NCBI GenBank assembly: GCA_021537435.1
Contig: GCA_021537435.1_3050.1
Strand: one strand, 5' to 3'
Length of the DNA: 64,000 nucleotides
From: a phage
Every line of letters starts with the position of its first letter. Positions within the stretch are counted from its first letter, which is position 1. Position numbers and translations under genes: made by a program. The notes beneath the pieces were generated by a model. The model was given only the letters and a program-made list of their open reading frames with translations, was not told where the DNA came from and ran no database searches. Positions 4,989-61,620 of the stretch are shown here, one piece after another.

Positions 4989-5569
4989 TATTCACCACAG
5001 AATTCGTTGATATTTTCCCAGTTTAACTTATTCAAGTTTTTCTTAGGAACATTAAACACTTCAATACCTGCATTTCGCAGAATATCATCCCAGCCAGGTT
5101 TATTTTTATCGTATGTTTCACAATAAACCAGCTTTTTAATACCAGATTGAGCTATCGCTTTTGCGCAATCTGGACAGGGAGAAAGTGTTACATACATAGT
5201 AGCACCTTCAATAGAAGAACCATTTCGTGCAGCAAACAAAATTGCATTTAGTTCAGCATGAATTTCATTTTTAGACGACCATTCAGAGTGAGCGCTACGG
5301 TGTTCTTTCGCCAAGATAAAACGATCAGTTGAACCAAACGATACACATTCAGGCTTATGACCTTGAATGATAGTATGTTTAGGTTTATTCAACAACCAAC
5401 CTTGCTCGGCAGCATAATCGCAGCAGTTCACACCCCCGGCAGGTGAACCATTATATCCGGTAGAAATAATACGTCCATTCTTTTCAATTACTGCTCCTAC
5501 TTTCCAGGAGCAACATTTTGATTCTTGTGATACTAAATATGCAATTTGAAGTACTGTACTCGCTTTCAT
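4988..5569 (-). CDS. cd: dCMP deaminase
   Basis: 193 aa; cytidine/dCMP deaminase zinc motifs HAE and PCxxC. Confidence 0.9.
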   Translation of the reverse strand: MKASTVLQIAYLVSQESKCCSWKVGAVIEKNGRIISTGYNGSPAGGVNCCDYAAEQGWLLNKPKHTIIQGHKPECVSFGSTDRFILAKEHRSAHSEWSSKNEIHAELNAILFAARNGSSIEGATMYVTLSPCPDCAKAIAQSGIKKLVYCETYDKNKPGWDDILRNAGIEVFNVPKKNLNKLNWENINEFCGE

Positions 5570-5904
5570 TTCATAATCACCAGATAAGCAGATTTAGCAG
5601 TTTCAACACGATAAATTTCGTGACGAAGTTTAGTTATACTTTTAATAACAGAACTAATTATATTCTGCCCATCTTTAAAGCGGTTTTTCTTATCAATAAA
5701 AATTGCACCAGCCATCTTTTTGTGAAGCTCAACTGGATACTTCGTCACAATAATAGCATCATACACAGAAGGATGAATACTATTCACTAGAGTATCATTC
5801 ATTAAAGTTATTCTAATGAACTGTGCTGTTTCAGAGTCAAGCGCTCTATGATCGCCAGTATCATTTTCAAGACAATTATCAATTATATCAGTTAAATTCA
5901 TCAT
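5566..5904 (-). CDS. hypothetical protein
   Basis: ORF-track 112 aa. Confidence 0.45.
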   Translation of the reverse strand: MMNLTDIIDNCLENDTGDHRALDSETAQFIRITLMNDTLVNSIHPSVYDAIIVTKYPVELHKKMAGAIFIDKKNRFKDGQNIISSVIKSITKLRHEIYRVETAKSAYLVIMK

Positions 5905-7666: not shown

Positions 7667-7676
<10 letters not shown>

Positions 7677-7966
7677 TTATCCTCTTTTAACTCTTGGCGA
7701 TAATAACATATCATAGTTTTCTGATCATGTACATATCGTTTTACATCATTAAGCCAAATACGAAATTCCTGGGAATCTTCGAATGGCATACCGACCCAAG
7801 CTTTACCATCAATAACTTTAACTTGCCAGGATAGTTTAGCTTCATCATATGACTTTATTTGTACTGGCCAATTAGGATGAACTGTTTCTTTCTTTACTTC
7901 TAGAGGCTTTGTCGAACAACCAACTAGAAGACCAATAGATAATATTACTGCTGATAGTTTAATCAT
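7667..7966 (-). CDS. putative lipoprotein
   Basis: N-terminal signal peptide ending in lipobox LVGC. Confidence 0.5.
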
Positions 7967-8316
7967 TTAGAAAGGTCCTGGATGTCTTCTGCGAACTTGT
8001 TGAAGGAGTTGTTGATTTGTTTTTCAACCAATCCTGGCTTATGAGCCACCACATCCGCCTTCTTTGCGTCTTTGCGCAGTTTTTCATTTTCACGCTCAAT
8101 AGCAGCAATTGCCTCACGATTTTTATTATTCATCGCATCAATATAATTATACTGAATTCGCAAATTATTTAATGCTAAAGCGTTTTCATTGGCCGTTTTT
8201 GTAATTTCTACAACAGACGTTTCTAATCTTTCAATTTTATTTTTTAAAATTAAAGAAGTTCCGCCCAATGCAATTACAATTAATAGCAAGCCTGCTGTCG
8301 TATTACTTAATTGCAT
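7963..8316 (-). CDS. membrane-anchored hypothetical protein
   Basis: N-terminal hydrophobic helix then charged coiled-coil-like region. Confidence 0.45.
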   Translation of the reverse strand: MQLSNTTAGLLLIVIALGGTSLILKNKIERLETSVVEITKTANENALALNNLRIQYNYIDAMNNKNREAIAAIERENEKLRKDAKKADVVAHKPGLVEKQINNSFNKFAEDIQDLSK

Positions 8317-39234: not shown

Positions 39235-39375
39235 TTACCATACTAGTGAATGTAGTGCCATAATAACATCAGAAATGAAAAGCACGACTTGAATTAATCC
39301 GAACATTACTCCATAATATAGTGCTACCAATAAAGTAGCAAGGGCTAATGAATAGCCCAAGATTTTCTTAATCAT
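39235..39375 (-). CDS. small hydrophobic membrane protein (52.1-like)
   Basis: 46 aa MIKKILGYSLALATLLVALYYGVMF...; hand-translated. Confidence 0.35.
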   Translation of the reverse strand: MIKKILGYSLALATLLVALYYGVMFGLIQVVLFISDVIMALHSLVW

Positions 39376-39526
39376 TAGTAGATAACAACACAAATGTTAA
39401 ATATGCACACATACCCTGAGCTAAAGCTTGTGAAAACACGCTGCTGGCATCGATACAGATAGTTAAAACACATGCTACTATCCAACAAATAAATGAAATA
39501 ACTCCTAATAATTTTGCAATATTCAT
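39368..39526 (-). CDS. small hydrophobic membrane protein (ac-like position)
   Basis: 52 aa MNIAKLLGVISFICWIVACVL...; hand-translated. Confidence 0.35.
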   Translation of the reverse strand: MNIAKLLGVISFICWIVACVLTICIDASSVFSQALAQGMCAYLTFVLLSTND

Positions 39527-46022: not shown

Positions 46023-46055
46023 TTAATTATACCACATCCTTGTGGTAAAGTAAAC
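46023..46055 (-). promoter_or_regulatory. T4-type early promoter for rIIA.1/rIIA
   Basis: Minus strand GTTTACT, 17 nt, TGGTATAAT. Confidence 0.55.
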
Positions 46056-47875
46056 TATTGGCTCATCCATTCTTTACGAAGATCAGCATTATCTCCCATG
46101 AGCATTTCAAAAAGCTCTTTCCAGTTCTCAGGAAGTTTAACAACATCATATACTGGGTTTTGAATCATCTCACGATATTCAGATTTTTCCAAAGAGCCAA
46201 GTCCTTTAATATAACGGATGCTATGTTTAGGTAGAGCATCTTTGGCACTCTCATATTCAGCGACTGTATAAAACCATTCTTGTTTTTTACCGACCTGAGC
46301 GATGATTACAGGAGTTTTGACAAAGCGAATTCTTCCTTGCTCAAACAATTCTGGCCAATTACTAAAAAATCCGAGCAGAGAAGGATAAATGCTTCCTAGA
46401 CCATCATGGTCAGCATCAGTCATAATAGCGATATTATGATAATTCAAGTTTTCAGCTTTTTCACCGAGAACTAGACCAGTGATTGCGCAAATATCAAATA
46501 GTTCTTTGTTTTTAAGCATATCTGCATAAGACATACCCCAACTGTTGAGAACTTTACCACGTAATGGATAACCACCATGAAGTTCTTTATCACGAACATC
46601 AATAAGATATCCGATAGCAGAATCACCCTCAGTCAAGAAAAGAGTAGTGTCAGCATCTTTACCGCAAAGATTCGCTTTAATATGTTTATGAACCTTTGCC
46701 TTAGAGGCCTTTTTAGCTGCTTTAGTTTCAGCTGCTTTTTCTGCTGCCAATTTACGAGCCAAGGCAGCTTCAATAATTGGCATCAAAATAGCTTCATTAT
46801 TTAGAATAGCGCGTGAAATCTTTTTAGCATCAAGTTGAATATGACTACGAATTTCACCAAATGGAGAAGTCAAACGCTCTTTAGTTTGAGAGTCAAATCG
46901 CATGTTTTTCATATCGCGAACAAACATAACGATAGTCAAACATTCTTTAACACGTGCTTTAGTTACATCAATTTTGAATTTACGTTTGATTTGTGGAATA
47001 AGGTCTTCACAAATATCATCCATAACACAGTCAATGTGATGGCCACCATTCTTAGTATGAATGTTATTGACGTACGTCAACTGACGAAAACCATCCGGTG
47101 AACGACCAACCGCAATAGAACAATTTTCTTGTTCTTGAACAATAGCATGTTCATCATACTGTCGTGCATATTTCTTAAAATTGCCCTGAACCTTTTTACC
47201 ATTAAAGGTAAATTGAATATCAGGATAAACAACTGCGAGTGTCTGGAGACGATCCAGTGTAATGTCAAGATAAACTTGGGACAGCTCATTAGTTTCAAAT
47301 GACATAAAATCAGGAATGAAAGTAACACGAGTTCCTTTCCATTTTCCAGGAATATCTTCCCATGATTTATTTTCCATGCCATTTGAACAACGAACTACAA
47401 TATTATTTTGACCGTCGCCAGTTTCACCAACAAACATCACAGAAAAAATGTTTGTCAAACTAGAACCAACACCATTCATACCGCCAGTGACGCGTTCTTT
47501 ATCATCACCAAAGTTACCACCTGCTTTTGGAATAGTCCATGCAGCAACAGGACCAGGAATTTCTTCACCAGTAGGTGTTTTAACCATAGCCTGTGGAATA
47601 CCACGACCGTTATCTTCAACTGTTACCTGATTATTTTTAATAGTAACATTAATTTTATTTGCGAATTTAAACTTAGTACGAATACCTTCATCTACTGAGT
47701 TATCGATAATTTCATCAATAAGCTTAACAAGACCAGGTACATACTGAACACTTTCCCATTTACCAAACAGAAAGCGCTCATGCATTTCATTAGCAGAAGA
47801 GCCAATGTACATGCCGCTACGCTTTTTGATATGTTCAATATCGCTCAGAATTTTAATTTCATTCTTAATCATCAC
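46055..47875 (-). CDS. 39: topoisomerase II large subunit, unsplit (39 plus 60 equivalent)
   Basis: 606 aa continuous ORF with GyrB-like ATPase N-terminus and TOPRIM C-terminus (LTEGDSA, IMTDADHDG). Confidence 0.9.
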   Translation of the reverse strand: MMIKNEIKILSDIEHIKKRSGMYIGSSANEMHERFLFGKWESVQYVPGLVKLIDEIIDNSVDEGIRTKFKFANKINVTIKNNQVTVEDNGRGIPQAMVKTPTGEEIPGPVAAWTIPKAGGNFGDDKERVTGGMNGVGSSLTNIFSVMFVGETGDGQNNIVVRCSNGMENKSWEDIPGKWKGTRVTFIPDFMSFETNELSQVYLDITLDRLQTLAVVYPDIQFTFNGKKVQGNFKKYARQYDEHAIVQEQENCSIAVGRSPDGFRQLTYVNNIHTKNGGHHIDCVMDDICEDLIPQIKRKFKIDVTKARVKECLTIVMFVRDMKNMRFDSQTKERLTSPFGEIRSHIQLDAKKISRAILNNEAILMPIIEAALARKLAAEKAAETKAAKKASKAKVHKHIKANLCGKDADTTLFLTEGDSAIGYLIDVRDKELHGGYPLRGKVLNSWGMSYADMLKNKELFDICAITGLVLGEKAENLNYHNIAIMTDADHDGLGSIYPSLLGFFSNWPELFEQGRIRFVKTPVIIAQVGKKQEWFYTVAEYESAKDALPKHSIRYIKGLGSLEKSEYREMIQNPVYDVVKLPENWKELFEMLMGDNADLRKEWMSQ

Positions 47876-47940
47876 TTATCCTCGTTTGGTTTCGGGAATA
47901 TTATACTCCGGTAATCATAAAGCTAAAGGCCGAAGGCCTT

Positions 47941-48210
47941 TTATTTAAAACGAATAGTTGAATCCTTAAAGAACAGCCCAGAACATACTGTTCCTTCTAC
48001 TTTCTGCCCAGTAGGTCCAATAGCACGAAATCCAGTATGTTGGAAATCATTTTCAGAGCAACCGAACCAGTTATATCCAGTGATTTCAATATTAGTAAAA
48101 CCGCTTGAAGACAAAACTTTGGTTGCATTATCAGCATCAGTACATCCTACTAAAGACACTGCTAATACTAATGCTGCAATAGAACGATTAATATATTTCA
48201 TAATTTTCAC
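47941..48210 (-). CDS. putative lipoprotein
   Basis: Signal peptide with lipobox LVGC. Confidence 0.5.
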   Translation of the reverse strand: MKIMKYINRSIAALVLAVSLVGCTDADNATKVLSSSGFTNIEITGYNWFGCSENDFQHTGFRAIGPTGQKVEGTVCSGLFFKDSTIRFK

Positions 48211-48578
48211 TTAAATTTAATGGCTTGAAGAAGACTAATAATTCTCAAGCGACTTCTTTCATCTTTAACTGTAAAAGAAAGAGGGTCACCAGATTTCATA
48301 GTAATAGTACATTCAAAATCAAAATCTTCGGAAACTTCTTTGAAGAAGTCAAATTCTTCATCATAAATTAGAACATTACTCTGACAACTATGAAGAATTT
48401 TTCCATCATTTCCAGATGCTGTACTAATCATTGTAACATTATGACCTTTCATATCTTCAACGATAAATTCACTAGTCAATATTACAGCATTAATAGAACT
48501 ATTCCTATTACTAGCAGAAAGTAGATATTTCTGTTCTTCACCTTCACGAATGCGATATTTCTTACCGATTTTAAACAT
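48207..48578 (-). CDS. hypothetical protein
   Basis: ORF-track 123 aa. Confidence 0.5.
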   Translation of the reverse strand: MFKIGKKYRIREGEEQKYLLSASNRNSSINAVILTSEFIVEDMKGHNVTMISTASGNDGKILHSCQSNVLIYDEEFDFFKEVSEDFDFECTITMKSGDPLSFTVKDERSRLRIISLLQAIKFK

Positions 48579-48580
48579 AA

Positions 48581-48757
48581 TTACCCTTTAAGTAAGTCGT
48601 AAAAACCACCATTCACATGCTTAGGAGCAGAAGGCCGACGAGTAGACAGACGATGACATTTAGGACAAACATCATTTTCTCGTTCAGAAATCTTTTTAAT
48701 TTTTTCATATTCATGCCCGCAATCTTCGGATTGGCATTTATAATCATACATTGGCAT
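48581..48757 (-). CDS. FmdB-like zinc-ribbon protein
   Basis: 58 aa (below ORF-track cutoff); MPMYDYKCQSEDCGHEYE ... CPKCH; hand-translated. Confidence 0.45.
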   Translation of the reverse strand: MPMYDYKCQSEDCGHEYEKIKKISERENDVCPKCHRLSTRRPSAPKHVNGGFYDLLKG

Positions 48758-48759
48758 AA

Positions 48760-49179
48760 TTATTCCTTAAAGTGTGCTTTCAACATCTGATACAAGGACC
48801 ATGCCTGTTCATTATTTTCAATAGTAACTTTCATGACCGGGAATTCTGTGAAATCTTCTATTTGTTCTTGCTCTTCCTGCTTTTGCTCTTCGGACGCTTG
48901 ATATGGATTTCCAACTTCGTCAAAGAACTCTGCTTCATTCGTGGAGAGCCAGATAAAGTTTTCATCAAGGATATCACCGCCTGTTGCGTATCCAACCGTG
49001 CCAGTAGATGTCACAATTTTAGTAGGACGACTGAGATGGTCAACATCTAAAATTTTAAAAGGTTCCATACCTAAACGTCGTGCGTAGATTCCGTTATCAG
49101 TATGGTCTTTAATAAAAGCTTCCTGAGCTTGTTTATTTTTAAATTGATACCATTTATTAACTTCAAATCTAATAGCCAT
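48760..49179 (-). CDS. hypothetical acidic protein (goF-like position)
   Basis: ORF-track 139 aa. Confidence 0.45.
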
Positions 49180-61326: not shown

Positions 61327-61620
61327 TTACTCACCTACCACTTCAGCGATGATATTTTTATTATTAAAGTTTTTATCGCAATACAGAACATAATTATACT
61401 GCATTACACCACCAGACTTAAGCTGTTTTTGTACTTCAGCTTTCATTTCAGGACGGTCACGCTCAACAATATTCATAATATCTGCTTCAATTTGAGTTTC
61501 AACTTCAGTCTGATCTGCAGTCATAGACCATTCACACAAATCTTTGTCATAACCCGCCATAGCAGGCTGAGCAGCACAAGAAGATAAAGCAAAAATTGTA
61601 GCAAAGATAAATTTTTTCAT
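61327..61620 (-). CDS. sp: spackle periplasmic protein
   Basis: 97 aa, signal peptide MKKFIFATIFALSSCAAQPAMA. Confidence 0.65.
   Translation of the reverse strand: MKKFIFATIFALSSCAAQPAMAGYDKDLCEWSMTADQTEVETQIEADIMNIVERDRPEMKAEVQKQLKSGGVMQYNYVLYCDKNFNNKNIIAEVVGE

Follow-up and report, generated by a model that had tools for sequence, protein, structure and literature searches.

Among small phage lipoproteins, Llp of T5 and Cor of phi80, T1 and N15 provide the precedent for proteins that mask a receptor. The T-even protein Sp (Spackle), which is all-helical in the published structures, acts in the periplasm, while lysozyme inhibitors of the MliC/PliC type occur either lipid-anchored or soluble and Ivy has a disulfide-closed CKPHDC loop. 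The tape-measure protein is the binding partner of Imm, which is polytopic in the inner membrane (bioRxiv 10.64898/2026.03.06.709160), and the spanins PseT.3 and PseT.2 of T4 complement lambda Rz/Rz1 amber mutants, with Cys87 and Cys98 of PseT.2 both needed (Kongari et al. 2018, PMC6139136). Here we compare with these systems two small open reading frames (ORFs), 47941..48210 and 7667..7966, of a phage genome (contig GCA_021537435.1_3050.1 of assembly GCA_021537435.1); by the window we mean the whole stretch of 64,000 nucleotides that was analysed. From its sequence we identify the second as the T4-type o-spanin PseT.2, a lysis protein whose biology is already known. The first contains the T-even gene 39.1, whose product gp39.1 is, judging by its signal, very probably an exported lipoprotein. 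The reading that most reasonably fits our observations, and to which we give somewhat better than an even chance, is a joint one in which 7667..7966 is pseT.2 and gp39.1 acts in the periplasm, tethered to a membrane, as a binder or inhibitor of some conserved component of the envelope.

The window is a T-even (Tequatrovirus) genome, collinear with T4, in which gene 39 forms one ORF of 606 residues (46055..47875, minus strand) without the gene 60 split, the 50-nucleotide translational bypass or the mobA insertion, which places the phage with the T2/T6 type rather than with T4 itself. The first-pass annotation had drawn attention to the two ORFs as small lipoproteins with a common lipobox, and the sequence confirms their positions on the minus strand and a signal that ends in L-V-G-C in each: the 89-residue product of 47941..48210, read from a GTG start, begins MKIMKYINRSIAALVLAVSLVGC and continues as TDADN..., and the 99-residue product of 7667..7966 begins MIKLSAVILSIGLLVGC and continues as STKP.... 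Both satisfy a scan in the style of PROSITE PS51257 (K or R near the N-terminus, an uncharged hydrophobic run, and [AGS]-C with the Cys at position 14-35) and are predicted substrates of signal peptidase II, as had been proposed; that their mature parts are unrelated also holds, BLASTP giving E = 0.069 for an alignment anchored on the signal peptide. The rule selects only four of the 330 six-frame ORFs of at least 40 residues in the window, namely pseT.2, 39.1, sp and an ac-like membrane peptide, all of them real T-even genes. As no off-frame ORF among the 330 passes, the export signals of both ORFs are not due to chance. The gp39.1 signal MKYINRSIAALVLAVSLVGC carries K2 and R6, an 11-residue h-region and LVGC with the Cys at position 20 (86-residue numbering), and the pseT.2 lipobox (...LLVGC followed by STKP) is succeeded by Ser at +2, with no Asp. 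LVGC accounts for 7 of 110 lipoboxes in a sample of the 39.1 family, where it is among the commoner variants; its presence in both ORFs is a matter of lipobox consensus and no sign of a relationship between them.

Gene 39.1 and its protein family

The ATG at 48201 is the start conserved in T2, T4T and T6, and the protein read from it is 99-100% identical to the 86-residue gp39.1 of these three phages; a start at the in-frame GTG at 48210, which overlaps the upstream ORF's stop codon, would lengthen the product by MKI. The product matches PHROG 902 (function not known) with E = 2.3e-37 over residues 3-89, and the gene lies between 39.2/goF and gene 39, as in T4T, T2 and T6, in a neighbourhood 98-99% identical to that of many T4-like phages of Escherichia, Shigella, Yersinia and Serratia. 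These matches identify ORF 47941..48201 as T-even gene 39.1, a member of a catalogued conserved family without assigned function. Some GenBank and UniRef entries label the product 'lipoprotein', and literature searches found no functional study of gp39.1 or its gene. In T4 the 39.1 transcript belongs to the early RNA class, and the protein has been detected and assigned to the protein-abundance class 'late' (PMC9697503 supplement).

The lipoprotein character of gp39.1 is a property of the family. In 175 aligned members the lipobox Cys column is kept in 157, the -1 position is G, A or S in 162 and the +2 position is T or S in 157; a separate classification of 175 members found a hydrophobic segment with Cys in 156 and a hydrophobic anchor without Cys in 16, and Pfam LPAM_1 was matched by 7 members. 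Invariant in an 18-sequence alignment (numbered, as are C51, D55, C76 and similar positions throughout, by the 89-residue reading) are C23, T24, D25, C51, D55, T59, G60, F61, G73, V75, C76, S77, G78, K82, T85 and R87, and the protein of the window carries the family's C51, D55, T59, F61, G73, C76, K82, T85 and R87. C51 and C76 occur together in 164 of the 175 members, and an additional pair, C77/C84, is found in 28, neither of its cysteines ever alone. Cysteines paired in this manner are the signature of disulfides, which are expected only in an oxidising compartment and hence in an exported protein; a C51-C76 disulfide is presumed for gp39.1.

An AlphaFold2 model from 79 sequences has a mean predicted local distance difference test (pLDDT) score of 82.9, with 80-96 over the domain (73.6 for the other AlphaFold2 model), and places the signal-peptide helix before a helix at 26-35 and strands at 39-46, 57-64, 70-77 and 84-88. 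The predicted order of the domain is helix, strand 1, a Cys-containing acidic loop and strands 2 to 4, and the C77/C84 pairing is compatible with the hairpin of strands 3 and 4. L33 is separated from the anchor Cys by nine residues in 157 of the 175 members and the model helix begins at residue 26, which leaves no flexible linker, so that the predicted domain must sit on the membrane surface. In 16 of the 175 members a transmembrane or signal anchor replaces the lipobox, in most with a 'TD...A' motif straight after the anchor, and anchors that are interchangeable in this way fit a binder that needs only to be held in the periplasm. Searches for relatives returned little: Pfam, with the protein and 79 members individually, gave only lipid-attachment-site matches and noise, NCBIfam gave weak matches at the level of the signal peptide, PADLOC held no relative, and a profile search against PDB sequences had no match at E <= 10. 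Foldseek against the viral library BFVD returned uncharacterised members of the 39.1 family only.

The family is widespread. By tblastn a 39.1 homologue is present in 1,071 phage records, about 991 of them with an intact gene at a coverage of at least 80%, and the hosts of the carrying phages include Escherichia, Klebsiella, Enterobacter, Serratia, Yersinia, Vibrio, Aeromonas, Pseudomonas, Rhizobium and Brevundimonas, with the cyanophage S-CRM01 in addition. Identity within the domain remains at 40-55% in phages of enterobacteria, Vibrio, Aeromonas, Pseudomonas, Rhizobium, Brevundimonas and Synechococcus. An exhaustive profile search at E <= 1e-3 found 2,040 clusters (50% identity), a number that falls to 858 at E <= 1e-10, and BFVD adds jumbo phages of Agrobacterium, Edwardsiella and Klebsiella to the carriers. 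On IMG/VR viral contigs 103 loci were confirmed, and the 80 that were retrieved have a guanine-plus-cytosine (GC) content of 26-63% and contig sizes typical of T4-like, jumbo and 40-60 kilobase (kb) temperate phages. Matches in a plasmid collection lie on phage-plasmid-like replicons of 117 kb with ribonucleotide reductase, dUTPase and RNA ligase. A scan of 185,579 species genomes with narrow peptide patterns gave five loci, of which L002-L004 hold a family member while L005 and L006 fail the family model; the three family-positive contigs are short metagenome bins, and L002 has a phage-type DNA polymerase and a primase-helicase. Wherever the context could be read, the family was confined to DNA of phages or prophages or to DNA resembling phage-plasmids.

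Across T4-like genera the identities of mature gp39.1 and of gp39 are 75 and 78%, 70 and 72%, 66 and 77%, and 55 and 61%; gp39.1 evolves about as slowly as the essential core topoisomerase beside it. Clustering of up to four flanking ORFs per side at 42 loci revealed no recurrent neighbour beyond the synteny of T4-like phages. The neighbours that could be identified are RecT, the YqaJ exonuclease, an S24 repressor, PolA, DnaB-primase, PIF1 and SNF2 helicases, PhoH and a protein of the poly(A)-polymerase family with an HD domain, and the modules in which 39.1 resides, in phages of very different kinds, are early ones or serve replication. At these loci it was never found beside a lysis cassette or a tail or receptor-binding module. 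In three lambdoid-like prophages from IMG/VR with 58-60% GC (L036, L047 and L055) an S24 (CI/LexA-like) repressor precedes the homologue by a few small genes on the same strand, and RecT and the YqaJ exonuclease lie downstream of it; this position of the homologue is comparable to the sieB/ral/kil zone of lambda.

The T4 reference sequence gives a different picture of the gene. In NC_000866 / AF158101, 39.1 is annotated with 65 residues and no signal peptide and 39.2 with 45 residues; the 24 codons upstream of the annotated 39.1 in NC_000866 read ...SLINSTDAD and then a stop, with LINS in place of the lipobox and one extra T. This broken version is limited to four records (M89919, X06220, AF158101 and NC_000866), and the re-sequenced T4T (HM137666) and T4 'wild' (KJ477684) have an intact 86-residue gp39.1 with the lipobox LIGC and a 58-residue gp39.2. 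When NC_000866 5398..5839 is set against HM137666 1888..2327 (47941..48201 and 48581..48757 being the equivalents in the window), the differences are confined to about 70 nucleotides at the 5' end of 39.1, the rest being identical down to T4-specific silent changes. NC_000866 was compiled from many laboratories and T4T comes from a single stock (Petrov et al. 2010, PMC2993671). The possibility that 39.1 is a pseudogene in T4 was rejected, as the lesion is found only in the four records of the old compiled sequence and T4T and T4 'wild' are intact; judged from the sequences, the truncation of 39.1 and 39.2 probably stems from old sequencing errors. The error has already been carried into functional-genomics resources: the truncated form is used by both omics resources checked, and UniProt Q01435 is the accession given for 39.1 in the omics table.

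A putative periplasmic binder and its alternatives

We propose a model for gp39.1 in the context of the infected cell's envelope. As a stand-alone accessory gene, 39.1 would be transcribed early, and the 86-residue precursor would be exported by Sec, processed by Lgt, LspA and Lnt at Cys20 and handled by Lol. Thr at +2 predicts the outer membrane under the E. coli +2 rule, and this is, from the sequence, the probable location of the protein, although we hold it with distinctly less confidence than its export as a lipoprotein. The mature domain of 66 residues, which begins two residues past the lipid anchor, would lie flat on the periplasmic face of the membrane, where it may bind, and probably inhibit or divert, a molecule conserved across Gram-negative envelopes, for example an enzyme or machine of the host's periplasm or envelope. 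Contact would be made by the acidic loop C51-S-E-N/D-D55, which the presumed disulfide pins, and by the invariant T59, K82, T85 and R87, which with the loop form the candidate surface. As to whether this conserved target belongs to the host, we lean slightly towards doubt. Sp, which inhibits the gp5 lysozyme by direct binding in the periplasm, is the working analogy for gp39.1 as a periplasmic inhibitor. With MliC/PliC and Ivy the likeness, one of analogy and not of homology, lies in a small periplasmic domain, an anchor that varies within the family and a disulfide-pinned loop with invariant polar residues; MliC/PliC form an eight-stranded barrel, Ivy is larger than gp39.1, and neither MliC/PliC nor Ivy is among the Foldseek matches listed for gp39.1.

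The first-pass annotation had named both lipoproteins, alongside sp, as candidates for receptor masking or superinfection exclusion. Were gp39.1 a masking lipoprotein of the T5 Llp or phi80/T1 Cor type, it would block the phage's own outer-membrane receptor from the periplasmic face, so that later adsorption is prevented and progeny are protected from debris. Like Llp and the Cor proteins of phi80, T1 and N15, gp39.1 is a small, early-expressed phage lipoprotein with a predicted place in the outer membrane, a presumed disulfide and a short tether, and a domain that lies so close to the membrane would be well placed to dock on periplasmic turns of a protein in the outer membrane. T2 uses FadL/OmpF, T4 OmpC/lipopolysaccharide (LPS) and T6 Tsx, however, and T2 and T4 share one mature gp39.1 sequence, from which that of T6 departs at a single residue, a finding that argues against masking of this type. 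The domain is moreover spread over phages of unrelated hosts from several bacterial phyla and is not tied to one receptor, it never adjoins tail-fibre or receptor-binding genes at the 42 loci, it evolves slowly like a core enzyme and unlike proteins that track a receptor, and 9% of the members are anchored by a transmembrane segment. No similarity to Llp or Cor was found in Pfam, PHROG, PDB sequences (E <= 10) or by Foldseek against the PDB (none at E < 1), the PDB searches having matched no solved structure in either sequence or fold, and we consider a masking role very unlikely. Exclusion in the manner of Spackle is also unlikely in our estimation, if rather less so. Here gp39.1 would bind a periplasmic component of the superinfecting phage, such as the tail-tip lysin, the tape-measure protein or the ejected DNA, and abort genome entry. 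In timing and compartment it resembles Sp and Imm (early RNA, periplasmic, membrane-associated), all three being early T-even envelope proteins; its gene stands alone; interchangeable anchors fit a soluble periplasmic target; and in temperate phages the gene sits a few genes past the repressor and before the recombination genes, a zone that in lambda is occupied by sieB, rex and ral. Ejection proteins vary greatly among T4-like, jumbo and lambdoid phages, yet the domain retains its 40-55% identity and invariant polar residues across them, and T-even exclusion is explained genetically by imm and sp, with no exclusion phenotype or function for 39.1 found in the literature searches. Sp is also a separate family (PHROG 1586), whereas gp39.1 has a modelled helix-plus-sheet fold and a far wider distribution.

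A part in lysis, as a second o-spanin, a regulator of spanin or holin, or a component of lysis inhibition, appears highly improbable. A small lipoprotein of the outer-membrane type does resemble an o-spanin, T4 lysis genes are scattered over the genome (PMC6139136), and the 'late' abundance class of the T4 protein (PMC9697503 supplement) would suit such a role. The phage already has a complete PseT.3/PseT.2 pair, though, and gp39.1 is unrelated to PseT.2 and has none of the genomic hallmarks of an o-spanin: no i-spanin-like gene adjoins 39.1, either here or at the 42 loci, and it lies among genes for replication and recombination, never beside those for an endolysin or a holin. The mature protein is compact, folded and linker-free in the model rather than an extended chain that could span the periplasm, and no significant spanin match was obtained in PHROG or Pfam, the sole spanin hit coming from one family member at E = 0.093. 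The last alternative, which we rate as very improbable, is that gp39.1 is not a lipoprotein in vivo, being cleaved by signal peptidase I, held in the inner membrane by its signal or encoded by a decaying gene without function. Spackle, with its lipobox-like LSSC, is nevertheless considered soluble and periplasmic, 9% of the family lacks the Cys, and the 39-56 region has long been regarded as dispensable on the evidence of deletions; a 'Not Fit' call in the CRISPRi-ART screen (PMC11879866 supplement) points the same way. In this family, however, the Cys column is 90% conserved with canonical residues at -3 and -1, the protein is detected in T4 infection (PMC9697503 supplement), gp39.1 is under purifying selection as strong as that on gp39, about 991 of the 1,071 phage records have an intact gene, and the 'pseudogene' form of T4 is found only in records with the old compiled reference in common.

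Several points also weigh against the binder or inhibitor that we favour. Foldseek with the two AlphaFold2 models found nothing in the PDB better than E = 1.3-1.4 and none below 1, both models including the signal peptide, which weakens the search. With no significant fold match and no relative in Pfam, NCBIfam or PADLOC, the word inhibitor draws on architecture and analogy only, and target and effect are inferred. The site of action is ambiguous, as a transmembrane anchor would keep the members that have one in the inner membrane, while for the lipoproteins the +2 rule predicts the outer membrane, and lipoproteins without a disordered linker can reportedly be sorted poorly by Lol. The broad conservation of 39.1 could furthermore reflect a conserved target derived from phages and not from the host. 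The CRISPRi-ART screen of T4 recorded no fitness effect for 39.1, which it lists as a PHROG 'singleton', with guides placed around the false start at T4 coordinates 5565-5605, erroneous bases included (PMC11879866 supplement). Guides designed on a false start make the call unreliable, and we give it little weight.

A more far-reaching and clearly speculative version of the binder model, of which we are doubtful, would make gp39.1 and PHROG 902 an unrecognised class of periplasmic effectors of Gram-negative phages, in which a lipid-tethered, disulfide-braced mini-domain inhibits or hijacks one universal envelope enzyme or machine. A peptidoglycan hydrolase, a periplasmic protease and the Bam or Lpt apparatus would be the candidate targets, and T4-like, jumbo and lambdoid phages alike would deploy the domain early; such a class could have been overlooked in part because the T4 reference genome truncates 39.1. 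In any event gp39.1 is a well-defined experimental target, an exported domain of 66 residues with about 2,000 clusters in phages of very different Gram-negative hosts. Should its partner be a conserved envelope component, the protein could reveal a new early manipulation of the periplasm by phages and could point to a druggable weak spot of the Gram-negative envelope.

The spanin pair pseT.3/pseT.2

For 7667..7966 the suggestion of a receptor-masking or exclusion factor is not borne out, the ORF being recognisable as the lysis gene pseT.2 from its near-identity to the T4 protein, its match to PHROG 812 'Rz-like spanin' (E = 3.5e-43) and the adjacent i-spanin gene. Cys87 and Cys98 are both present. 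Directly upstream lies pseT.3, whose stop codon overlaps the pseT.2 start and whose product combines a transmembrane segment at its N-terminus with a periplasmic coiled coil and has weak coiled-coil Pfam matches; pseT.1 and pseT follow downstream, as in T4. The lipobox, both cysteines, the upstream i-spanin gene and the position beside pseT.1/pseT are thus all as in T4, and the sole difference from T4 PseT.2 is one residue, at a position that is ambiguous in the reference. By extension from T4, PseT.2 would be lipidated at Cys17, sorted to the outer membrane and bound across the periplasm by the inner-membrane PseT.3. Once the endolysin has cleared the peptidoglycan, the complex would fuse or disrupt both membranes in the last step of lysis. 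This is a textbook T4 o-spanin, and our analysis adds nothing new on it.

Further features of the two loci

The coordinates of the features discussed are collected in the table.

Table. Positions in the window of the two lipoprotein genes, their parts and accompanying features
Feature	Coordinates	Strand	Evidence
Gene 39.1, coding sequence from the conserved ATG at 48201, predicted 86-residue prolipoprotein	47941..48201	-	ORF list; homology; PHROG 902
gp39.1 lipobox L-V-G-C, residues 20-23 of the 89-residue reading	48142..48153	-	sequence; rule scan; family conservation
gp39.1 Cys codon, predicted acylation site and first mature residue (Cys20 in 86 residues, Cys23 in 89 residues)	48142..48144	-	sequence
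Mature 66-residue gp39.1 domain, TDADN...TIRFK	47944..48141	-	AlphaFold2 model and family alignment
7-base-pair hairpin, AAAGGCC-UUC-GGCCUUU, from the 39.1 stop codon onward	47925..47941	-	sequence
GoF paralogue, 123 residues, between 39.2 and 39.1	48207..48578	-	PHROG 622, E = 3.5e-30
39.2, 58-residue CxxC...CxxC zinc-ribbon protein	48581..48757	-	Pfam Zn_ribbon_8, E = 6.7e-12
GoF	48760..49179		PHROG 622, E = 2.2e-41
pseT.2, outer-membrane lipoprotein subunit (o-spanin) of the two-component spanin	7667..7966	-	99% identity over 99 residues to T4 PseT.2; PHROG 812
pseT.2 lipobox L14-V15-G16-C17	7916..7927	-	sequence
pseT.3, inner-membrane subunit (i-spanin)	7963..8316	-	92% identical to T4 PseT.3; PHROG 739 'Rz-like spanin', E = 2.5e-37
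sp (Spackle, gp61.3), periplasmic superinfection-exclusion protein	61327..61620	-	PHROG 1586 'spackle periplasmic', E = 9.5e-47
ORF of 52 residues, probably the T4 ac gene	39368..39526	-	PHROG 2501; passes the lipobox regular expression

After the hairpin at the end of 39.1 comes a TATAAT-like element, upstream of gene 39; T4 carries GGCC-UUCG-GGCC at the equivalent place of the hairpin. Over a stretch of 51 nucleotides the fold in the window has -9.8 kcal/mol, with a z of -0.87 that is indistinguishable from shuffles, and the hairpin was not picked up by a simple terminator scan; its probable role at the end of the 39.1 transcription unit is that of a terminator or of a structure that stabilises the RNA. 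On the other side of the gene the window differs from T4 by the GoF paralogue between 39.2 and 39.1, which T6 (123 residues) and T2 (105 residues) share and T4 lacks; it is the stop codon of this paralogue that overlaps the possible GTG start of 39.1. The neighbouring 39.2 is named 'FmdB-like transcriptional regulator' in databases from domain similarity alone.

Among unusual variants of the 39.1 domain (P0129, P0061, P0060/P0113/P0148, and 6868..7338 of L092), one member combines a zinc ribbon with a prepilin-like GFTLVEMLIV anchor, another is a tandem duplication of the domain (142 residues), and several have a long cytoplasmic N-terminus and a transmembrane anchor. The '156-residue lipoprotein' of PG7 was considered as a domain fusion and rejected, being a 39.1 domain with a low-complexity read-through tail.

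The signal peptide of Spackle, MKKFIFATIFALSSC followed by AAQPA..., likewise passes the lipobox rule (...FALSSC before AAQPA). Sp is described as a soluble periplasmic protein that is cleaved further downstream, after AMA. It is unrelated to both lipoproteins, gp39.1 matching PHROG 902 only. In the probable ac product the hydrophobic stretch runs on beyond the Cys (IVAC and then VLTIC), so that it resembles a small transmembrane peptide rather than a lipoprotein.

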